This document shows, piece by piece, positions 19,691-49,507 of a stretch of DNA of 64,000 nucleotides. The stretch lies in assembly GCF_024700885.2 (NCBI RefSeq), contig NZ_CP117016.1; one strand, 5' to 3'. Both the position numbers and the translations under genes were made by a program. The DNA comes from Escherichia coli. Its GTDB lineage: Bacteria; Pseudomonadota; Gammaproteobacteria; Enterobacterales; Enterobacteriaceae. Under the pieces are notes generated by a model. That model did no database searches, was not told the origin of the DNA, and saw only the letters and a list, made by a program, of their open reading frames with translations. Within the stretch, counting starts at the first letter, position 1; each line of letters begins with the position of its first letter.

Positions 19691-22516
19691 ATGACAGTAA
19701 AAATTTCTGGCGTGCTTAAAGATGGCACAGGAAAACCAGTACAGAACTGCACCATTGTGCTGAAGGCCAGACGAACCAGCAGCACGGTGGTGGTGAACAC
19801 GGTGGCCTCTGAAAATCCGGATGAAGCCGGACGTTACAGCATGGATGTTGAGCATGGTCAGTACAGCGTCACCCTGCTGGTTGAAGGTTTTCCGCCTTCA
19901 CATGCCGGGACCATTACCGTCTATGAAGGTTCCAGACCAGGTACGCTGAATGATTTTCTCGGTGCCATGACGGAGGATGATGTCCGACCGGAGGCACTGC
20001 GCCGCTTTGAGCAGATGGTGGAAGAGGTGTCACGTAACGCCTCCGCGGTTGCACAGAATACGGCAGCCGCGAAAAAATCAGCCAGCGATGCCAGTGCATC
20101 AGCCAGCGAGGCGGCAACTCATGCAACCGATGCTGCAGCCTCAGCACGTGCCGCCAGCACGTCAGCCGGACAGGCCGCGTCGTCGGCTCAGTCAGCGTCT
20201 TCCAGCGCAGGAACGGCATCGACAAAGGCCCGTGAAGCAGCAAAAAGTGCTGCTGCTGCAGAGTCATCAAAAAGCGCGGCAGCTACCAGCGCCAGTGCCG
20301 CGAAAACGTCAGAAACGAATGCCGCAGCATCACAAAAATCGGCAGCCACTTCTGCATCCACAGCGACCACGAAGGCGTCAGAAGCTGCCACCTCGGCACG
20401 GGGTGCGGCGGCCTCAAAAGAGGCAGCGAAATCATCAGAAACGAACGCATCATCAAGCGCCAGTAGTGCCGCTTCCTCGGCAACGGCGGCAGGCAATTCC
20501 GCGAAGGCGGCAAAGACGTCTGAGACAAACGCCAGGTCTTCTGAAACGGCAGCGGGACAGAGCGCCTCGGCTGCGGCAGGCTCAAAAACAGCGGCTGCGT
20601 CGTCTGCCAGTGCCGCGTCAACAAGTGCCGGGCAGGCCTCAGCCAGTGCCACCGCCGCCGGAAAATCGGCAGAAAGCGCCGCATCATCCGCTTCAACAGC
20701 CACAACGAAGGCTGGCAAAGCCACTGAGCAAGCCACTGCAGCAGCGAGGTCTGCTTCTGCAGCAAAAACCTCTGAAACAAATGCAAAGACTTCAGCAGAC
20801 AATGCTGCTTCCTCTAAGGCGGCAGCCGCATCGTCAGCCAGTTCAGCGGCGTCATCGGCATCATCTGCGTCTGCTTCAAAAGATGAGGCGACCAGACAAG
20901 CGTCAGCAGCGAAAGGTAGTGCCACGACAGCAACAATGAAAGCATCAGAGGCAGCTGGTAGTGTGACGGCGGCAGCTCAGAGCAAAAGTACGGCGGAATC
21001 CGCGGCAACGCGCGCCGAGACAGCAGCAAAACGGGCAGAGGATATTGCATCCGCCGTGGCGCTGGAGGATGCGAGCACGACGAAAAAGGGGATAGTACAG
21101 CTCAGCAGTGCGACCAACAGCACTTCCGAGTCACTGGCGGCAACGCCAAAAGCGGTTAAGGCGGTAATGGGTGAAACGAACAAGAAAGCGCCCTTAAATA
21201 GTCCTGCACTGACCGGAACGCCAACAACACCAACTGCGCGACAGGGAACGAATAATACCCAAATCGCAAGCACGGCTTATGTTATGGCTGCGATCGCTGC
21301 CCTCGTGGACTCGTCGCCTGACGCACTGAATACGCTGAACGAGCTGGCTGCGGCGTTGGGCAACGACCCGAATTTTGCGACCACCATGACTAACGCGCTT
21401 GCGGGTAAGCAACCGAAAGATGCCACCCTGACGGCGCTGGCCGGGCTTGCTACTGCGGCAGACAGGTTTCCGTATTTTACGGGGAATGATGTTGCCAGTC
21501 TGGCAACCCTGACAAAAGTTGGGCGGGATATTCTTGCGAAATCGACCGTTGCCGCCGTTATCGAATACCTCGGTTTACGAGAACTCGGCACAAGCGGGGA
21601 GAAAATACCGTTACTCAGTACAGCGAATACCTGGACTAATCGACAAACATTCAGCGGTGGCCTTTCTGGTGAACTATCCGGCAATGCTTCTACAGCTGCA
21701 AAATTAAAAACTGCCAGGAAAATAAGCAATGTGGCTTTTGATGGTTCCTCCGATATCACATTAAAAGCAAGTCATGTTGGTGCGTTTGCCTTAGGGAAAA
21801 CAGGAAGCACCGTTGCGAATGATAAAGCAGTTGGATGGAACTGGAGTAGCGGAGCCTATAACGCAACTATTAGTGGTGCATCAACGTTAATTATTCATTT
21901 TTATATGGGAGAAGGAAGTTGTCCTGCAGCTCAGTTTCGGATTAATTATAAAAATGGCGGTGTTTTTTATCGTTCAGCCCGTGATGGTTATGGTTTTGAA
22001 GCCGACTGGTCCGAATTTTACACCACCACCAGAAAACCTTCAGCAGGAGATGTTGGTGCACTGCCGTTATCTGGTGGTCAACTGAATGGTACACTGGGTA
22101 TCGGAACATCCAGTGCTCTTGGCGGTAATTCGATTGTATTGGGTGATAATGACACGGGCTTTAAACAAAATGGCGATGGTAATCTGGATGTTTATGCTAA
22201 TAACGTCCATGTTATGCGCTTTGTCTCCGGAAGCATTCAAAGTAATAAAACCATAAATATTACAGGGCGTGTTAACCCCTCGGATTACGGTAACTTTGAT
22301 TCCCGTTATGTGAAAGATGTTCGACTTGGTTCACAGCAATATTATGGAGTGAACAACTGGCAAACATGGTATTTCCGGTGCCCTTCAGGTCATGTATTGT
22401 CTGGTATTAATGTTCAGGATACAGGGTCTAACTCTGCCGATAATATAGCGGGCGTTTATTACAGACCCGTTCAGAAGTATATAAATGGCACCTGGTATAA
22501 TGTAGCGAGCGTTTAA
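19691..22516 (+). CDS. stf: Side tail fibre protein Stf (constant N-terminal part plus current variable C-terminal part)
   Basis: N-terminus [28 protein letters not shown]...[20 protein letters not shown] closely resembles lambda Stf; long Ala/Ser/Thr-rich region; the left crossover site lies inside the gene. Confidence 0.9.
21558..21583 (+). promoter_or_regulatory. Left recombination crossover site (gix/pix-like 26-mer) for a Gin/Pin-family invertase
   Basis: TTATCGAATACCTCGGTTTACGAGAA; 22 of 26 positions match the reverse complement of the right site; the inverted-repeat similarity extends to about 40 bp. Confidence 0.7.
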
Positions 22517-23624: not shown

Positions 23625-24593
23625 CTATGCCTGTTCAACGTTATACCAGTTACCAGAAATGTATTTTTGTAGTGGTCGTGACACCATCCAGTCATCTCCA
23701 TCAACCTCACCAATAATTTGCAATCCTGTTGTCACATGACCATTACCTGGTTCGCAAAGTCCTCCGCGATATAATGTGTCAGAACGTCTGCCTCCCAGAC
23801 GCACATTTCTGATAAAAGAACTATTCAGGTAATCATTTAAGTTTGAACCCCAGCACCCACCAAATATATTTCCATCGGTGTTATAACGGACGCCACCCGC
23901 AATAAGAGCACCCGGTGAAATAAAGGATTTATCGTTCGGGTTAAACTGCCATAAAGCATCATTACCGCCATCGCCACGCATATGAATACATGGAACCGGA
24001 AATCCATACTGTTCTGTCAGTAAATACCCAAAGCTGACCGCGCCGGGATAGCCCTGTCCATTGCGAATGGACAAGCCCTTAACTATCGGCACGTAATGAC
24101 CACCAGGAGTGGGATTCCAGGCAAACTGCGTCTGAACAAAAGGCGCGGTGGCATTATTCAACTGGTCTGCAAATGCGCCACTTCCATCAGGAATTATTCC
24201 CTGATGAATATATGCAACCCGCTTATAAAAATCAGCAGATGCGGGTTGAAGTCCAAATGCCAGTTGTCCATTTGAATAGAATAAAAGGACACCGTCGCCG
24301 CCCTGTTTAATACCAGTGTCGTTATCTCCGAGAGTAATGGAATTACCGCCCAGTGCGTTATCTGTACCAAGCGCCAGCCCACCATCAATTTTGGCCCCGT
24401 GGCTGACAGATATAGCACCTGTTCTCAGATTTATAGCGAATGGCCTTAATGGGCCTATATCACCGTTTTCGCCTTGTCCTTCAGCCGTCGGAATGAAATG
24501 AAGAAAATCTTCTGAACGACGGAAAATAAGACCGAAGGCATCATTGAAAATTCGCAGCGCATTCACCGTGCCAATTTTCAGTTCTCCGGTCAT
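23625..24593 (-). CDS. Alternative Stf C-terminal (receptor-binding) cassette, silent in this orientation
   Basis: 322-aa minus-strand ORF whose C-terminus (LQKYISGNWYNVEQA) parallels the current Stf C-terminus ([15 protein letters not shown]); reads in frame into the right crossover site. Confidence 0.75.
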   Translation of the reverse strand: MTGELKIGTVNALRIFNDAFGLIFRRSEDFLHFIPTAEGQGENGDIGPLRPFAINLRTGAISVSHGAKIDGGLALGTDNALGGNSITLGDNDTGIKQGGDGVLLFYSNGQLAFGLQPASADFYKRVAYIHQGIIPDGSGAFADQLNNATAPFVQTQFAWNPTPGGHYVPIVKGLSIRNGQGYPGAVSFGYLLTEQYGFPVPCIHMRGDGGNDALWQFNPNDKSFISPGALIAGGVRYNTDGNIFGGCWGSNLNDYLNSSFIRNVRLGGRRSDTLYRGGLCEPGNGHVTTGLQIIGEVDGDDWMVSRPLQKYISGNWYNVEQA

Positions 24594-25099: not shown

Positions 25100-25768
25100 C
25101 TATTTTTTCCCTGAAGCGGAAAACATTACTACAGTACCTTGAACCTTGGTTTTAACATTCTCGAAATGCTCTGAGAGTATATGTGTTAAGCCTTCTTCGG
25201 AATCTTTTGTGTTTGAAAAGATGCCTTTCTGATTGTAAATGCGCATCAGTTTTTGACCGAAGCTATTGTGCACAACTCCATCGCCAAGAATTGTGGCTCC
25301 GTATAGAGTTCCATCGTCAGTTAAGGCCTGCGCCGCATTGCGTATTACACAGCTTTTTGTAGATATATTTCCAGGCAGGCAGTGAAGAAGGTAAAACATG
25401 GAAATGGAATCAAATTGACCATGTAACGCCGCGGGATAAGGTTCAAAAACATCATGGCTAATTTTATGTTTAATTTTTGATTCCCCAGCCCTTGTAGATG
25501 CCGCGTTCAGGCTAGCTTCGTTCAAATCCATTAAAGATATCAGACTACTCTCAGGTACGTGAGTAAGGTAAAACCCAGTTCCAACACCAATATCCAGATG
25601 GTTGTTACCTACATGTTCCAGAAAGTGTGGAAGAAGGTGTTCCTTTGTAGGACATCCCCATGCAAGCCGATTTGATACTCCCAAAACCCACCAGTCATAA
25701 AGCTTTAGGGTAAGTGGTGTGTAAATTTTAGCCCCATCATCTGTGTTTTTTTTCATTGATTTCACCAT
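25100..25768 (-). CDS. Class I SAM-dependent methyltransferase (substrate unknown); prophage cargo gene
   Basis: 222-aa ORF with Rossmann SAM-binding motif LDIGVGTGFYL; no DPPY/NPPY or PC-type DNA-methyltransferase motifs seen; appears AT-richer than its surroundings; flanked by the direct repeats. Confidence 0.7.
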   Translation of the reverse strand: MVKSMKKNTDDGAKIYTPLTLKLYDWWVLGVSNRLAWGCPTKEHLLPHFLEHVGNNHLDIGVGTGFYLTHVPESSLISLMDLNEASLNAASTRAGESKIKHKISHDVFEPYPAALHGQFDSISMFYLLHCLPGNISTKSCVIRNAAQALTDDGTLYGATILGDGVVHNSFGQKLMRIYNQKGIFSNTKDSEEGLTHILSEHFENVKTKVQGTVVMFSASGKK

Positions 25769-26379: not shown

Positions 26380-26691
26380 CGTCAGCGAGAGCAGAAGGAA
26401 GAACTGAATAACCTGAATGATTTACGCTCAATCAGAGCGATGATGATTGGCAGTAATTAGCGGTCAATTTCGGTTTTGTTGGCTGTGCGCTCCCCGCCCA
26501 GCATTGCGCGTCAATTAGCCCCAAAAAAACGAAAAAGTTACAATCAAGTAAAAAATTCCTTCTGCAAAACTAAAAAAGATTTCAATAAAATCAGACAGTT
26601 AAAAACATAAAAAAAAGGTACAAAAAAACATCTCAAAGTCTTGTTTTTTGCTTCAAATACAATTGGTTATTGTGTTTTTTGAAACCTACCA

Positions 26692-26808
26692 GTGTGGTAC
26701 ATGGATATCGATACCACCGCCAATTATAAACTGGGCGGTGCACAGCAACACGATAGCGTACGCCTCGATCCGTGGGTGTTTATGTTCTCAGCAGGATATC
26801 GTTTTTAA
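26692..26808 (+). pseudogene. ompW: 3' remnant of ompW (last about 38 codons) at the prophage-chromosome junction
   Basis: Translates to VWYMDIDTTANYKLGGAQQHDSVRLDPWVFMFSAGYRF*, which I recognise as the OmpW C-terminus; no upstream ompW coding sequence precedes it; in K-12 ompW is the intact neighbour of yciE. Confidence 0.8.
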
Positions 26809-28565: not shown

Positions 28566-29372
28566 TTAACTGCGCGTCGCCGCTTTCATCGGTTGTACAA
28601 AAGCTTTCAGTGCCGCCAGCATTTTCTCTGGCTCATTAATATGTTGCTCGATGATTTTAACGATGGCCGAACCAGAAATCGCGCCCGCAGCTCCTGCATC
28701 AATCGCTGCTTTTACCTGATCCGGGGCGGAAATACCAAAGCCCTGCAATGGAGGCGCAGCATTGTATTCTTTCAGCTTCGTGACCAGATGATTGAGGGGT
28801 AACGCGGCGCGGTTTTCTGCGCCGGTCACGCCCGCACGTGACAATAAATAGGTGTATCCACGACCGTAGGAGGCTATCTGGCGCAGCAAATCATCGTCGG
28901 CATTCGGCGGGCAAATAAAGATAGGTGCGACATTATGACGCAACGCGGCCTGGCGGAAGGGAGCGGACTCTTCCACTGGCACATCGGCAACCAGCACCGA
29001 ATCGACGCCGACTTTCTCGCACTGGGCATAAAACTCATCAATGCCTTTGTTAAACACCAGGTTGGCATACATCAAAAGGCCGATGGGAATGGTCGGGTGC
29101 TTCTGGCGAATCAGTGCCAGCATCTCAAAGCACTGTGCCGGGGTCACACCTGCCGCAAAGGCACGCAGTGTGGCGTTTTGAATCGTCGGGCCATCCGCCA
29201 GTGGGTCGGAGAAGGGGATACCTAACTCCAGCGCGTCAGCACCGGCTTCAATTAGCGTGTCGATAATTTTCAGCGACTGCTCAATGCCCGGATCACCGAG
29301 CGTGACGAAAGGAACGAATGCGCCTTCTTTGCGCTCCTTCAACTGGGCAAACAGAGATTCGTAGCGTTCCAT
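28566..29372 (-). CDS. trpA: Tryptophan synthase alpha subunit
   Basis: 268 aa, [28 protein letters not shown]; start overlaps the trpB stop. Confidence 0.97.
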
Positions 29373-30565
29373 CAGATTTCCCCTCGTGCTTTCAAAATAT
29401 CGTGAACGGTGAAGATGTCTTTATCGCCGCGACCGGAAAGGTTAACCACCAGTAGCTGCTCTTTTTCCGGGTTTTCGCGCATCATTTTCAGCGCATGGGC
29501 CAGGGCGTGGGAGGATTCTAGCGCCGGGATGATCCCTTCGTGCAGGCACAGCGTTTTGAAGGCTTCCAGTGCTTCATCATCGGTAATTGACACGTAATCA
29601 GCGCGTCCAGTGCTGTTAAGATACGCGTGTTGTGGGCCGACAGACGGGAAATCCAGTCCGGCGGAGATGGAGTAAGATTCTTCAATCTGTCCATCTTCGG
29701 TTTGCATCATCGGCGCTTTCATACCGAAATAGATGCCCACGCGACCGTGTTTTAACGGTGCGCCGTGCTCGCCAGTTTCGATACCGTGACCGCCTGGTTC
29801 GACACCAATCAGGCCGACGTCGGTTTCGTTGATAAAATCAGCAAACATGCCGATGGCATTCGAACCGCCGCCAACACAGGCGATAACCGCATCCGGCAGG
29901 CGACCTTCTCTTTCCAGAATCTGCGCTTTCGTTTCTTCGCCAATCATTCGCTGAAACTCACGCACAATGGTCGGGTAAGGATGCGGGCCAGCCGCGGTGC
30001 CCAGCATATAGTGAGCGGTTTCATAACTGCCGGACCAGTCGCGTAGCGCCTCATTACAGGCATCTTTCAGCGTCGCGGAACCGCTATGCACCGGGATCAC
30101 TTCCGCACCCATTAAGCGCATACGAAAAACGTTAGGCGACTGGCGCTCGACGTCTTTGGCACCCATATAAATGCGACATTTCAGGCCGAGCAGGGCGCTG
30201 GCAAGGGCCGACGCCACGCCATGCTGACCGGCACCGGTTTCGGCGATGATTTCGGTTTTACCCATCCGCTTCGCCAGTAAAGCCTGACCGAGCACCTGGT
30301 TAGTTTTATGCGCGCCGCCGTGCAGCAAATCTTCGCGCTTGAGATACAGCGTGGTGTTAGTGCCAGCCGTGATGTTCTGGCATTTGGTGAGTGCGGTTGG
30401 ACGCCCGGCATAGTTTTTCAGCAGGTCGTTGAACTGGGCCTGAAATTCAGGATCTTTTTGCGCGCTGACAAAAGCTTCTTCCAGCTGGCGCAGAGCAGGC
30501 ATCAGGATTTGTGGCACGTACATGCCGCCAAACTCACCAAAATACGGGTTAAGTAATGTTGTCAT
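29372..30565 (-). CDS. trpB: Tryptophan synthase beta subunit
   Basis: 397 aa, [21 protein letters not shown]...; PLP-enzyme motifs. Confidence 0.97.
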
Positions 30566-30576
30566 TGTTCCTTTCC

Positions 30577-31938
30577 TTAATATGCGCGCAGCGTCTGGAA
30601 AACCGAGGCCAAAAGACGTGCGTCTTTGATGCCCGGTTGCGACTCTACAGCAGAATTAAAATCAAGTCCGGCGCAGCCGGTTTGTGCCGCTTCCACGCAG
30701 TTATCTGCGCCTAAGCCCCCCGCCAGCAGAACGTTGCCAAGCGATTGGCCGTTTAACAGTGACCAGTCGAAACGTTGACCGCTTCCACCCTGGCCGTTGT
30801 CTAAAACATATTTATCAACGTGCTGAAGCTCGCGGGCGGGCAGGGTTTCACCGACGCTTAATGCTTTCCAGATGGCAACGTGTGCTGGCAGAGCTTCACG
30901 CAGCGTATCGATATACAGCTGATCTTCATTACCATGCAGTTGCACTGCCGCCAGCGATAACACCTTAGCTTTGTCCACCACATCGGCAATATCGTGATTG
31001 CGGAACACGCCAACATACTGCAACGGTGCCGCAGCCATCACTTCCTGCGCCTGTTCAACGTTGACGCAACGCGGTGATGTCGCAACAAAAATCAACCCAC
31101 CGTAAATCGCGCCCGCGTCATAAGCTGCTTTAGCATCTTGCCCACGCGTCAGGCCACATACTTTATTCTCACCCAGCAACACCCGGCGCACGGCGGCGTT
31201 CAAATCGTCATGGGCCATCAACGCCGAACCAATCAGAAAACCGTTAGCGAAGTGGCTTAACTCGCGCACCTGAGCGTAAGTATTGATGCCGGATTCGCTG
31301 ATTACCGTCACGTTGTGCCCCAGTTTCGGCGCAAGCTCGCGGGTACGGTTGAGATCAATCGACAAATCGCGCAGGTCGCGGTTGTTAATGCCAACGACCT
31401 TTGCCCCCAATGCAATGGCGCGCTCCAGTTCCTCTTCATTACTGACTTCGGTCAGCACACCCATCTCCAGACTGTGGGCGACGGCGGCAAGCTGGCGATA
31501 TTGTTCATCGTCCAGCACCGACAGCATTAATAAGCAGGCATCGGCCTGGTAATAGCGCGCCAGATAGATCTGGTAAGGGTCGATAATAAAGTCTTTACAT
31601 AAAATCGGCTGGGGGGCGATTTGGCTGACGATGGGGAGGAAATCAAAGCTCCCCTGGAAATATTTCTCATCGGTCAGCACCGAAATTGCCGAAGCATAAT
31701 TTCTGTAAACGGTTGCAATGCGTGCCGGATCAAAATCATCGCGGATCACGCCTTTTGACGGTGACGCTTTTTTACACTCCAGAATAAACGCCGTGCGTGC
31801 ACCCTGTAGCGCATCATAAAAATGTCGCGTGCTCGGCTGAACCTCATTCTGAAAACTGGCCAGCGGTTGCTGCTGTTTGCGGGCTTCTACCCAAATCGCC
31901 TTGTCTGCGACGATTTTCGCTAAAACGGTTTGCATCAT
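30577..31938 (-). CDS. trpC: Bifunctional indole-3-glycerol-phosphate synthase / phosphoribosylanthranilate isomerase
   Basis: 453 aa, [26 protein letters not shown]. Confidence 0.97.
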
Positions 31939-33534
31939 TTACCCTCGTGCCGCCAGTGCGGTGACTCTGTCGTAAGCGGAACCACTACGCAGTACCTCAA
32001 GAACGGTTTGCGCATTGGCTTGCAGATCTTCATGGCCATGCAGGCGCATTAACATGGCGACGTTCGCCGCGACGGCTGCTTCATGGGCGGCGTCGCCTTT
32101 ACCTTGTAACAAGCGTGTTAAAATGTCACGGTTTTCTTCCGGTGTTCCGCCTGCCAGTTGCTCCTGGTGGTAGGGTGTCAGGCCAAAATCTTCAGCGGTC
32201 AATTGATAGCTCTTAATTTCGCCGTCATGCAGTTCGGCAACGATTGTCGGCGCGTGTAATGAAACTTCATCCATCCCGCCGCTGTGCACCACCGCCGCGC
32301 GTTGATACCCCAGCACGCGCAAAGTTTCGGCAATCGGCAGCACCAGTTCCGGGCTGTAGACACCAATTAATGCCAGTGGCGGATGTGCCGGGTTAATCAA
32401 TGGCCCCAACACGTTGAACAGGGTGCGGGTTTTCAGTTGCTGGCGAACCGGCATCGCGTGGCGGAATCCGGTGTGATATTTCGGCGCAAAGAGGAAACAG
32501 ACGCCTAACTCATCCAGCGCCTGGCGCGATTTATCGGCGTTCATATCAAGATTAATACCGAATGCCGCCAGCAGATCCGACGAACCGGATTTACTGGAGA
32601 CGCTACGGTTGCCGTGTTTCGCCACTTTCAGCCCACAGGCCGCGGCGACAAACGCACTGGCGGTAGAAATATTGATACTGTTACTGCCGTCACCACCGGT
32701 ACCGACGATATCGGCAAACAGATAATCAGGGCGCGGGAACGGCGCAGCATTTTCCAGAAGGGCAGTTGCTGCCCCGGCGATTTCGTTCGGGTGCTCGCCA
32801 CGAATTTTCATGCTTACCAGAGCCGCCGCGAGCTGTTCTGGCTTCAGCTCGCCACGCACCACCGCTGAAAACAGCTGGTGGCTTTCTTGCTGGCTAAGCG
32901 TCTGCGCCTGATACAGTTTTTCCAGAATCGGTTGCAGCGTGTTAGTCGGTTCCAGTTTCTGCTGCGCCCAGGCCAATGTTTGTTCCAGCAGGCGAGCGCC
33001 CTGGGTAGTAAGAATGGATTCCGGATGGAACTGGAATCCACAAACGCGATCTGCATCGTGACGCACCGCCATCACCATGCCATTAAAATGGGCGTTGATG
33101 GTTAAACCGGCCGGAATGTTACTGCCAACCAGCGAGTGATAACGCGCCACTGGCAGCGGGTTTGTTAATCCGGCAAACATCGCCTGACCGTCATGTTCAA
33201 TGCTGGAGGCTTTACCGTGAAGAATTTCGCCCGCCTGACCGACATACCCCCCATAAGCTTCGACAATCGCCTGATGACCGAGGCAAATGCCAATAATTGG
33301 CAGCTTGCCGCGCAGGCGGGTGAGGAGTTCTGGCATACAACCGGCTTCGCTTGGCACACCGGGGCCAGGAGAAAGCATCAGCACCGGATTGCTCATTGTC
33401 GCCAGGCGTTCAATTAAGGTCTGCGCCGGAATATGGTTGCGGTAAATCACCACGTTATGCCCATTGCTGCGCAACTGATCTGCCAGGTTGTAAGTAAAAG
33501 AGTCGATATTATCGAGCAGCAGAATGTCAGCCAT
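31939..33534 (-). CDS. trpD: Anthranilate synthase component II / anthranilate phosphoribosyltransferase
   Basis: 531 aa, [21 protein letters not shown]; start overlaps the trpE stop (TGATG). Confidence 0.97.
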
Positions 33535-35096
33535 CAGAAAGTCTCCTGTGCATGATGCGCGGTGGCAATAGCGCGCAGTACAGCGCGGGCTTTATTACGG
33601 GTTTCGTCGGCTTCCGACTGCGGAACAGAATCAAGTACCACGCCAGCACCGGCTTGCACGGTGGCGATACCGTTTTCCACCAGTGCCGAGCGGATCACAA
33701 TGCAGGTGTCGAGATCGCCATGCGCGGTGAAATAACCTACCGCGCCGCCGTAGCTGCCGCGGCGACGACCTTCCGCCTCGGCAATTAACTGCATAGCGCG
33801 TACTTTCGGTGCACCGCTTAACGTCCCCATATTCATACAGGCGCGGTAAGCGTGCAGGGCGTCGAGATCGTGGCGCAGCTCACCGACCACGCGGGAGACC
33901 AGGTGCATCACGTAAGAGTAACGGTCAACTTTGGTGAGATCGGCGACGTAGCGGCTGCCGGGGGTGCAAATGCGTGCCAGATCATTACGGGCGAGATCCA
34001 CCAGCATCAGATGTTCAGAAAGCTCTTTATGATCGGTACGCATTTCCAGTTCGATGCGGCTGTCGAGGTCTCTGTCCAGTGAACCATCGGCACGACGACC
34101 GCGTGGACGTGTTCCGGCAATGGGGTAGATCTCAATCTGGCGGCTGGTGGCGTCATACTTGAGCGAACTTTCCGGCGACGCGCCAAACAGGGTGAAATCA
34201 TTATCCTGCATAAAAAACATGTACGGGCTGGGATTACTCTTTTTCAGCACGTAATAGGCCGCCAGCGGTGACGGGCAGGGCAGAGAGAAACGGCGAGATG
34301 GTACGACCTGGAAAATTTCTCCGGCGCGAATCGCTTTTTGCAACAAACGCACTACGCCACCGAACTCTTCATCGCTCTGGTTACATTCACAACGCATATG
34401 CGGCACGGAAACCACCGGCAGCGGTGGCGCGGTTTCAGTCAGTTGCTGGCGAAGATCGTTCAGGCGAGCAGTGAGACGTTGTTTTTCTTCTTCATTCGGA
34501 GCAAAAAGACTGGCCTGAATGCGGGTGCTTTTTTTCTGATGGTCAATCACCATCAGCGTTTCAGCGAGATAAAAACAGAAATCAGGACAGTTATTTTCCG
34601 CTGCCAGTTGTGGTAAATCTTCAAATCCCGCCACAAGGTCATAAGAGAACAGGCCGCCGAAGAACATTGCTTCTCGCTCTTCCCTCGGTACATTCAACAG
34701 ATTCTGCAATAAGCGGAAAGCGTCAAAAACCGAAAGGGAGCATAAGCGGGCGTCTTCATCCAGCAGTGGACTGACAGGGGGGAAGCGCAGCACACGGCAG
34801 TTTGGTGATTGTTCACTTTCCACACCCGCAGGCAGGGCGTTATCCAGTAGTGCCAGCAGGGCTTCGCCATTGCCGGAAAGTGCCTGAATTGTGACAGTGT
34901 CACCTAATGCTGTAATGCGCAGCGCACTGTCTATCAGCAGCAGACTTTTTAAATCATCTTTGCTGTCGATATCTGCGGATTCCAGCAGCAGCGTTGCTGG
35001 ACGATGCCCACACAACTGGTGAAAAAGCGCAGTCGGGTTGTCGCGATAAGCGCCTTCGCAGGTTAGCAGTTCGAGAGTCGGTTTTTGTGTTTGCAT
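33534..35096 (-). CDS. trpE: Anthranilate synthase component I
   Basis: 520 aa, [28 protein letters not shown]. Confidence 0.97.
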
Positions 35097-35116
35097 TGTT
35101 ATTCTCTAATTTTGTT

Positions 35117-35145
35117 CAAAAAAAAGCCCGCTCATTAGGCGGGCT
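35117..35145 (-). terminator. trp attenuator (3:4 terminator hairpin plus U tract)
   Basis: Minus strand reads agcccgc-ctaatga-gcgggct followed by tttttttt. Confidence 0.95.
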
Positions 35146-35187
35146 GGGTATCTGATTGCTTTACGCATGGTGAATACACTGCCCGTT

Positions 35188-35232
35188 TCAGGAAGTGCGC
35201 CACCAACCTTTCAGTACGAAAATTGCTTTCAT
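35188..35232 (-). CDS. trpL: trp operon leader peptide (14 aa, tandem Trp codons)
   Basis: Minus strand atgaaagcaattttcgtactgaaaggttggtggcgcacttcctga = [14 protein letters not shown]. Confidence 0.95.
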
Positions 35233-35258
35233 TGTCGATACCCTTTTTACGTGAACTT

Positions 35259-35296
35259 GCGTACTAGTTAACTAGTTCGATGATTAATTGTCAACA
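35259..35296 (-). promoter_or_regulatory. trp promoter (-35 TTGACA, -10 TTAACT) with overlapping TrpR operator palindrome
   Basis: Minus strand TTGACAATTAATCATCGAACTAGTTAACTAGTACGCAAG; -35 at 35294..35289, -10 at 35271..35266; operator palindrome about 35261..35280. Confidence 0.93.
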
Positions 35297-35369
35297 GCTC
35301 ATTTCAGAATATTTGCCAGAACCGTTATGATGTCGGCGCAAAAAACATTATCCAGAACGGGAGTGCGCC

Positions 35370-36251
35370 TTGAGCGACACGAATTACGCAGTGATTTACG
35401 ACCTGCACAGCCATACCACAGCTTCCGATGGCTGCCTGACGCCAGAAGCATTGGTGCACCGTGCAGTCGAGATGCGCGTCGGCACCCTGGCGATCACCGA
35501 CCATGACACCACAGCTGCAATCTCACCAGCAAGAGAGGAAATTTCACGTTCGGGACTGGCGCTGAATCTTATTCCCGGCGTGGAAATCTCCACGGTCTGG
35601 GAAAATCATGAAATTCATATTGTCGGGCTGAATATTGATATTACTCATCCGCTAATGTGTGAGTTCCTCGCGCAGCAGACAGAACGGCGCAATCAGCGGG
35701 CGCAGCTGATTGCCGAAAGACTTGAAAAAGCGCAAATACCTGGGGCACTGGAAGGCGCGCAACGACTGGCGCAGGGCGGTGCGGTGACGCGCGGTCATTT
35801 TGCGCGTTTCCTTGTGGAGTGCGGCAAAGCCAGTTCAATGGCGGATGTCTTTAAAAAATATCTGGCGCGCGGGAAAACCGGATACGTTCCGCCACAGTGG
35901 TGTACAATAGAACAAGCTATTGATGTCATTCATCATTCTGGCGGTAAGGCGGTGCTAGCTCATCCTGGGCGGTACAATCTTAGTGCTAAATGGCTGAAAA
36001 GATTGGTTGCGCATTTTGCCGAACACCACGGCGACGCGATGGAAGTCGCGCAGTGCCAGCAATCGCCCAATGAACGCACCCAGCTGGCGACACTTGCGCG
36101 TCAGCATCATTTATGGGCATCACAAGGATCTGATTTTCATCAGCCATGCCCGTGGATCGAACTGGGTCGTAAACTCTGGCTGCCCGCAGGCGTTGAAGGC
36201 GTCTGGCAGCTATGGGAACAGCCGCAGAACACCACAGAGAGGGAATTATGA
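35370..36251 (+). CDS. trpH: PHP-domain phosphoesterase TrpH (YciV)
   Basis: 293 aa with TTG start, MSDTNYAVIYDLHSHTTASDG (PHP motif). Confidence 0.92.
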   Translation: MSDTNYAVIYDLHSHTTASDGCLTPEALVHRAVEMRVGTLAITDHDTTAAISPAREEISRSGLALNLIPGVEISTVWENHEIHIVGLNIDITHPLMCEFLAQQTERRNQRAQLIAERLEKAQIPGALEGAQRLAQGGAVTRGHFARFLVECGKASSMADVFKKYLARGKTGYVPPQWCTIEQAIDVIHHSGGKAVLAHPGRYNLSAKWLKRLVAHFAEHHGDAMEVAQCQQSPNERTQLATLARQHHLWASQGSDFHQPCPWIELGRKLWLPAGVEGVWQLWEQPQNTTEREL

Positions 36252-49135: not shown

Positions 49136-49248
49136 TTATCATCATTCTTATTACCCATTTTTAATGAATTAAAGGGCTTTTAATACACCGCAGCAATAAC
49201 AGGTTGAGTTATCTCAACACAAAGTAATAACCGTTAAAGGTGTAGCCT

Positions 49249-49344
49249 ATGATCAACACAAATATGAAATATTGGTCCTGGATGGGCGCGTTTTCTCTGT
49301 CGATGTTCTTCTGGGCCGAATTCCTCTGTATCATTACTCACTGA
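49249..49344 (+). CDS. Candidate 31-aa small hydrophobic protein upstream of acnA
   Basis: ATG ORF MINTNMKYWSWMGAFSLSMFFWAEFLCIITH*; I half-recall a K-12 small protein (ymiC) here but am not certain. Confidence 0.35.
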   Translation: MINTNMKYWSWMGAFSLSMFFWAEFLCIITH

Positions 49345-49507
49345 TCCCTGACCCCGCTGCGGCGGGGTTTTCATTTGCTTTGCCACAAGGTTTCTCCTCT
49401 TTTATCAATTTGGGTTGTTATCAAATCGTTACGCGATGTTTGTGTTATCTTTAATATTCACCCTGAAGAGAATCAGGGCTTCGCAACCCTGTCATTAAGG
49501 AGGAGCT

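Follow-up and report, generated by a model that had tools for sequence, protein, structure and literature searches.

Control of the trp operon in two layers, repression by TrpR and ribosome-mediated attenuation, is the textbook mechanism of Yanofsky. Most amino-acid leader attenuators of E. coli lack the repressor-operator layer. The thrL, hisL, leuL, pheL and ilvL leaders of E. coli resemble the trp leader in that each has a short ORF in which the regulatory codon is abundant, hairpins that form as alternatives, and an intrinsic terminator, but they use other regulatory codons and have other sequences; one of them, thrL, is annotated as a 'Thr leader region' in the genome of isolate MLI114, to which the locus described below belongs. 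The trp leader of Bacillus subtilis, like that of E. coli, chooses between an antiterminator and a terminator in response to tryptophan. There the choice is made by Trp-activated TRAP bound to (G/U)AG repeats, not by a ribosome, and the leader encodes no peptide with Trp codons. A further relative is trpL/rnTrpL of Sinorhizobium meliloti, which lies upstream of trpE(G), has Trp codons in the reading frame of its 14-aa leader peptide, and works by ribosome-mediated attenuation. Two accounts describe the released S. meliloti attenuator RNA as a trans-acting sRNA (PMC6614838; PMC12612679). The S. meliloti system differs from that of E. coli in having no TrpR and hence a constitutive promoter, and in having its trp genes split over three operons.

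We analysed the trp control region in a 64,000-nucleotide stretch of E. coli DNA, here called the window. The leader, ribosome-type like that of S. meliloti, does not use the TRAP-type mechanism of B. subtilis; and where S. meliloti has a 110-nt sRNA that targets trpDC, the window has trpEDCBA as one operon with a TrpR operator. We observed the regulatory elements with their spacing and with the same sequence as in K-12, RNA helices that compete for bases, and both trpR and the target genes in intact form, and we conclude, at a probability of about 0.97, that the region is the native, unaltered E. coli trp control region of MLI114, lying on the minus strand and acting through TrpR repression plus ribosome-mediated attenuation. 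It is an already known, textbook system in its modal, K-12-identical form, and it holds no new biology. The preliminary description had called it well described and not novel, an assessment with which the K-12 identity, Rfam, the terminator scan, the PGAP annotation, the intact trpEDCBA and the matching TrpR all agree. The features and their positions are given in Table 1.

Table 1. Features of the trp control region and operon in the window.
Feature	Position	Strand	Remarks
-35 hexamer TTGACA, trp promoter	35289-35294	minus	exact consensus; same as K-12
-10 hexamer TTAACT, trp promoter	35266-35271	minus	same as K-12
TrpR operator CGAACTAGTTAACTAGTACG	35260-35279	minus	near-palindrome, two CTAG cores; string search; same as K-12
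trpL leader ORF	ATG 35232 to TGA 35188	minus	translation; 14 sense codons + stop
Tandem Trp codons TGG TGG, trpL codons 10-11	35200-35205	minus	tryptophan-sensing site
Leader RNA segment 1	35189-35207, nt +52 to +70	minus	pairs with segment 2 (1:2 pause hairpin)
Leader RNA segment 2	35165-35185, nt +74 to +94	minus	partner: segment 1 or 3
Leader RNA segment 3	35138-35152, nt +107 to +121	minus	partner: segment 2 (antiterminator) or 4 (terminator)
Attenuator, terminator hairpin 3:4 + T8 run	35118-35145	minus	terminator scan, fold, Rfam structure
Spacer of 21 nt, T-run to trpE ATG	35097-35117	minus	holds trpE ribosome-binding region (AGAGAAUAACA AUG); same as K-12
trpE	35096-33534	minus	full-length ORF, 520 aa, ATG at 35096
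trpD	33534-31939	minus	full-length ORF, 531 aa
trpC(F)	31938-30577	minus	full-length ORF, 453 aa
trpB	30565-29372	minus	full-length ORF, 397 aa
trpA	29372-28566	minus	full-length ORF, 268 aa

An exact string search of the minus strand gave a spacer of 17 nt between the -35 and -10 hexamers, and an explicit pattern search for TTGACA-N17-TTAACT found a single match in the window. The trp promoter was absent from the output of a generic promoter scan, which in this area reported only a plus-strand site upstream of rnm; the scan missed the trp promoter because it accepts a -10 hexamer solely with A as its second base, a rule that TTAACT breaks. The operator is self-complementary at 18 of its 20 positions, and its centre of symmetry falls inside the -10 hexamer. 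It is unique in the window, where 0.01 occurrences would be expected by chance, and it matched on both strands, which is the behaviour due from a palindrome. TrpR presumably binds here, as binding is known for exactly the CGAACTAGTTAACTAGTACG sequence.

The transcription start (+1), which we take to be position 35258 on the minus strand, was assigned from the identical K-12 sequence, so that the leader RNA would begin AAGUUCACG. With the A of AAGTTCACG as the start, an assignment likewise borrowed from the identical K-12 region, the leader is presumably 162 nt long. Counting from 35258 reproduces the classical numbering exactly: the trpL AUG falls at +27, the Trp codons at +54-59, the UGA stop at +69-71, the U-run at +134-141 and the trpE AUG at +163. 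A start at 35258 would thus be consistent with the classical numbering.

The trpL ORF corresponds to WP_001700591.1 in the PGAP annotation of MLI114, and the bases of that gene, as well as those of the annotated 'Trp leader region', are identical to the ones derived here. The terminator scan found the stem-loop AGCCCGCCTAATGAGCGGGCT at 35145-35125 with a 7-bp stem; the hairpin has 7-8 pairs, 6 of them G-C, and is followed by exactly 8 T (35125-35118). The preliminary description had claimed a TTGACA/TTAACT promoter with the TrpR operator palindrome over the -10, a 14-codon leader with tandem Trp codons, and an attenuator hairpin with a U8 run ending 21 nt before trpE. All of this was borne out to the base: both hexamers are exact, read in the direction of transcription at 35294-35289 and 35271-35266; the operator at 35279-35260 spans the -10; codons 10 and 11 of trpL (35232-35188) are TGG TGG; and the stretch from the T8 run to trpE, 35117-35097, is 21 nt.

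The leader was also recognised by covariance-model search. Rfam family RF00513 (Trp_leader), which comprises enterobacterial tryptophan operon leaders, matched at 35211-35118 on the minus strand over the full model, positions 1-100, with a score of 93.1 bits, where the gathering threshold is 41 bits (E = 2.7e-20 for the local search and 1.1e-18 for the window as a whole). Trp_leader is one of only two Rfam families above threshold in the window. Both helices of the consensus structure, the 1:2 pause hairpin and the 3:4 terminator, are present; relative to the consensus the window lacks 5 nt of the unpaired stretch that links the helices, which is general in E. coli. Chance resemblance to a trp control region was considered as an explanation and rejected, the Rfam score, the unique operator and a 349-base identity to K-12 (below) being far beyond chance.

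If the region behaves as the identical K-12 sequence is known to do, from which we infer the transcription start, TrpR binding, pausing and the response to tryptophan, expression would be set as follows. With tryptophan in ample supply, a TrpR dimer carrying Trp would occupy the operator across the -10 and block RNA polymerase at TTGACA/TTAACT. A polymerase that had started would pause at the 1:2 hairpin until a ribosome began translation of the 14-codon trpL. Were charged tRNA-Trp available, the ribosome would clear the Trp codons, reach the stop codon and cover segment 2; with segment 2 covered the 3:4 terminator would form, and transcription would end at the U8 run, at about +140. Were tRNA-Trp scarce, the ribosome would stall on UGG UGG in segment 1 and leave segment 2 free. 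Free segment 2 would then pair with segment 3 as it emerged, no terminator would form, and the polymerase would continue into trpEDCBA. In K-12, loss of TrpR raises expression roughly 70-fold and relief of attenuation roughly 8-10-fold.

The helices needed for such a switch were found when the leader was folded in parts. With ViennaRNA, helix 1:2 (nt 52-70 with nt 74-94) had an energy of -17.5 kcal/mol in a fold of nt 50-95, helix 2:3 (nt 74-86 with nt 107-119) one of -15.6 kcal/mol in a fold of nt 70-125, and helix 3:4 (nt 114-121 with nt 126-134) one of -14.0 kcal/mol in a sub-segment fold. The 1:2 and 2:3 helices both use nt 74-86, and the 2:3 and 3:4 helices both use nt 115-119, so that the helices are mutually exclusive, as the attenuation model requires. 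The Trp codons, nt 54-59, fall within segment 1, nt 52-70. The terminated leader RNA of 141 nt folded with -46.9 kcal/mol (z = -3.69), and 0 of 200 shuffled sequences folded as well.

When the whole 141-nt leader was folded with nt 1-71 masked, which mimics a ribosome stalled at the Trp codons, or with nt 1-84 masked, no antiterminator appeared and the terminator stayed in the minimum-energy structure. The 2:3 helix appeared only when segment 4 was left out (nt 70-125). Retention of the terminator at equilibrium despite the mask suggests that the antiterminator would win by kinetics alone, while segment 4 is still to be transcribed. A kinetic, co-transcriptional antiterminator would fit the classical model, being that model's own statement, and equilibrium folding alone cannot demonstrate the switch.

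None of the five ORFs of trpEDCBA (28566-35096) contains an internal stop, and PGAP also lists five intact genes. The order and orientation of genes are those of K-12 MG1655, with trpEDCBA on one side of the control region and rnm-yciO-yciQ divergent on the other. In MG1655 (trpL b1265, trpE b1264) the control region is the same as in the window at every base. Alignment with the K-12 trp regulatory region, the check that the preliminary description had proposed, gave zero mismatches across promoter, operator, leader and attenuator; the operator half-sites are without mismatches and the tandem Trp codons are kept. The identity extends without a single difference over 349 consecutive bases, 35038-35386, reaching 59 nt into trpE and 17 nt into rnm. 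Window and MG1655 are colinear over 5001 bases with no indels and 166 substitutions (3.3%); had the 349 bases changed at the rate of their flanks, 12.5 substitutions would have been expected among them, and 0 were observed (Poisson P about 4e-6).

The flanking genes differ from K-12 by about 3-4% of their DNA, mostly at synonymous sites. In trpE 61 of 1563 bases differ (3.9%), 56 of them at third positions (10.7% of third positions), and TrpE carries six amino-acid substitutions. Between trpE and rnm, by comparison, the 273-bp intergenic region shows no difference from K-12. With 0 of 273 intergenic bases changed against about 11% divergence at trpE third positions, the locus is a clean example of purifying selection on non-coding control DNA.

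The same holds across the species. The control region is present in 5421 of 5426 complete E. coli genomes, and 35097-35300 was found at an identity of at least 99% in 5355 of 5422 records. For an equal-length piece of the trpE coding sequence the records at or above 99% identity numbered only 316 of 5422, and the control region is therefore much more constrained than the gene under its control. In an evenly spaced sample of records about half were 100% identical, including those of the CFT073, B and C600 lineages. Eight variants were fetched and aligned as examples of the rarer alleles. Upstream of the transcript, the base beside the -35 hexamer was altered, as were spacer positions, a single position at the operator's outer edge, and position -1 (C to A); in the leader these variants had Gly9Ala in trpL, a change in the innermost terminator pair and T7 for T8. 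One variant strain had an 8-bp duplication inside the operator. The window carries the modal allele, with none of the changes seen in the eight variants.

Intact cis elements could nevertheless accompany the loss or alteration of a trans factor, for example TrpR, in which case the operator would be a silent relic and attenuation alone would operate. Loss of trpR does occur, if rarely, since 5 of the 5426 complete genomes have no trpR match while the remaining 5421 have one. The trpR gene lies outside the window, and we located it in MLI114 by synteny at NZ_CP117013.1 4432890-4433216, between yjjX and slt and beyond thrL-arcA-creDCBA-rob-gpmB-yjjX. Its 108-aa product is identical to K-12 TrpR across 106/108 residues aligned, and the operator is itself under visible purifying selection across E. 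coli. The locus and the product of the gene largely refute a loss or alteration of TrpR, which we regard as highly improbable. The trp promoter is also widely used in expression plasmids, and the region might be an engineered or vector-derived cassette and not native chromosome. Copies of the control region do occur on a few plasmids (6-8 places), and some genomes have it in up to 4 places. Such an origin was rejected, however, as refuted by the native chromosomal context: the region has trpE on one side and the divergent rnm-yciO-yciQ genes on the other, and over 5 kb this neighbourhood is colinear with K-12 and free of indels; the promoter is followed by the full leader-attenuator and trpEDCBA; and a 24-kb match of the window to NZ_CP117013.1, the chromosome of the Malian human stool isolate MLI114, shows 100% identity. 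We give a cassette virtually no credence.

Another proposal would supplement native trp control as the explanation of the region and would not replace it, namely that the terminated leader of ~140 nt, 35258 to about 35118, may also act in trans as the sRNA rnTrpL. A 2025 review (PMC12612679, citing Li et al. 2021) summarises reports on rnTrpL of E. coli, an Hfq-dependent RNA of 140 nt, according to which it destabilises dnaA mRNA and also affects sanA, mhpC, rsuA and bcr. The whole transcript is the same as in K-12, so that K-12 behaviour should carry over, and the stable folding of the terminated RNA (z-score above) is also in its favour. Against this, the literature on the trans role is small and comes mainly from one laboratory, the high conservation of the leader is already accounted for by its function in cis, and the targets lie outside the window. 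We put the chances of such an additional role in this strain at roughly even.

Control by TrpR and attenuation in a native setting also bears on how the window as a whole is read. Positions 1 to about 24950 are the tail region of a lambdoid prophage that replaces most of ompW; in this, some 3.6 kb past trpA, the window is unlike K-12. The left part of the window is phage-derived, and its right-hand part is ordinary E. coli chromosome. The preliminary description had taken the trp region as evidence that the host backbone was being read with the right coordinates and strand, and this was upheld, the region being native chromosome with its elements at the positions given and on the minus strand. 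The span given there, 35096-35296, has the A of the trpE ATG at one end and, at the other, a base 2 nt beyond the -35 hexamer on its upstream side; the description's sole omission was that it was silent on the minus-strand placement of the operon. The value of the locus is that of a calibration or positive control, a regulatory region on the reverse strand having been parsed to single-base accuracy from sequence.

Two unannotated genes between rluB and cobO were checked for a known defence system or domain, and the pair gave no Pfam match and no PADLOC match.

A separate observation concerns the DNA upstream of the trp promoter. The 73 bp from the trp -35 to the start codon of rnm (trpH), 35297-35369, are identical in 5184 of 5424 records (95.6%). 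For comparison, the 73 bp that hold the terminator and the trpE ribosome-binding region are identical in 4628 of 5418 (85.4%), so that conservation within E. coli is higher in the upstream 73 bp than in the segment with the terminator. To our knowledge, the 73 bp upstream of the trp -35 have no role in the classical trp model. A promoter-like site on the plus strand, TTCAGA-17-TATGAT (35303-35331), faces away from the trp -35 and starts only 9 bp from it, and a GGAG lies a few bases ahead of the TTG start of rnm. If the site is a genuine promoter, rnm transcription would be expected to start near 35338 on the plus strand, about 7 nt past TATGAT. The divergent promoters might be mechanistically coupled, either through an effect of polymerase or TrpR occupancy at trp on rnm-yciO-yciQ or through an undescribed shared upstream element; we think this unlikely, and nothing in the analysis supports it. 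On the simplest reading the upstream 73 bp are probably the rnm promoter and 5' UTR, under a constraint of their own.

Of the E. coli records, 95.6% carry exactly the same 73 bp as the window between the trp -35 hexamer and the TTG start codon of rnm (trpH), window positions 35297–35369. Identity of this stretch thus exceeded that of the 73 bp containing the attenuator terminator, which were identical in 85.4% of the records. In the classical trp model, 35297–35369 plays no role. A promoter-like site directed at rnm, whose TTG start is at 35370, was found here (Table), and only 9 bp separate the start of its -35 hexamer from the -35 hexamer of trp, which lies on the opposite strand. Given this 9-bp gap, the trp promoter and the predicted rnm promoter would be divergent and back to back.

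Other strains (L003–L009) carry rare natural changes in the control region, which the Table lists by window-equivalent position. In the alignment, all of these changes leave the CTAG cores, the Trp codons and the terminator's G+C stem untouched. A further variant, L002 (NZ_CP182387.1, strain Br_190_kylling), carries a trp operator with an 8-bp tandem duplication, AACTAGTT, at about locus positions 84–91. In the alignment the duplication creates a third CTAG half-site, with a TTAACT hexamer still 17 nt from the -35 hexamer. L002 is thus a natural operator-extension allele, and the extension might alter TrpR stoichiometry.

Table. Coordinates of features in the window and, by equivalent position, of variants in other strains
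Feature	Position	Strand	Remarks
Prophage tail genes	within 1–24950		tape measure, Lom, tail-fibre assembly genes
gpJ	15399–18872		prophage
Tail fibre	19691–22516		prophage
322-aa protein	23625–24593	-	between prophage and yciE
Recombinase fragment, 60 aa	24719–24901		between prophage and yciE
SAM-dependent methyltransferase	25100–25768	-	between prophage and yciE; Pfam Methyltransf_12, E = 4e-9
Variant G>T	35133		innermost terminator pair; L003–L009
Variant T7 in place of T8			T-run; L003–L009
Variant GGT>GCT	35207		Gly9Ala in trpL; L003–L009
Variant C>A	35259		position -1; three strains; L003–L009
Variant C>T	35279		outer operator base; L003–L009
Variants T>C	35280, 35286		promoter spacer; L003–L009
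Variant G>A	35295		adjoining -35 hexamer; L003–L009
Promoter-like site TTCAGA-17-TATGAT	35303–35331	+	directed at rnm (trpH)
Two 'hypothetical protein' genes, 340 aa and 102 aa	40047–41390	+	between rluB and cobO
STnc180, enterobacterial sRNA	49176–49378	+	Rfam RF02079, 193.4 bits

Across the E. coli genome collection, pieces of the trp promoter region were also found on 6–8 plasmid records and, in some genomes, at up to 4 places; the trp region was absent altogether from 5 of the 5426 genomes. Laboratory constructs and strains with trp deletions probably account for these plasmid and multi-place copies and trp-less genomes.

Downstream of the leader, trpE (33534–35096, minus strand) differs from its K-12 counterpart at 3.9% of bases; third codon positions account for 56 of the 61 differences. 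Six substitutions distinguish the TrpE proteins: D31H, V55I, K138R, S165A, E214D and A222T. Because the first trpE difference occurs only at nt 60, the initial 59 coding bases are as invariant as the leader.

K-12 is not known to carry any gene in the rluB–cobO interval. The two proteins encoded there in the window had no matches in Pfam or PADLOC. The segment was present at at least 80% coverage in only 214 of the 5426 E. coli genomes, with diverged partial matches in about 1000 further genomes. The segment has the appearance of a small, variable islet.

A lambdoid prophage occupies the left part of the window, 1–24950, with its tail end, and the junction is at about 24951; in close relatives (99.9% identity) the match to the window starts only at that point. 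Tail-fibre-assembly remnants lie in the interval between the prophage and yciE, and a Pfam search with the 322-aa protein gave no match. Of ompW, next to the prophage, the annotated remnant is a C-terminal fragment only (about 26683–26808). Elsewhere in the window, the STnc180 match lies directly upstream of acnA (49508) and overlaps the annotated small-protein gene ymiC.
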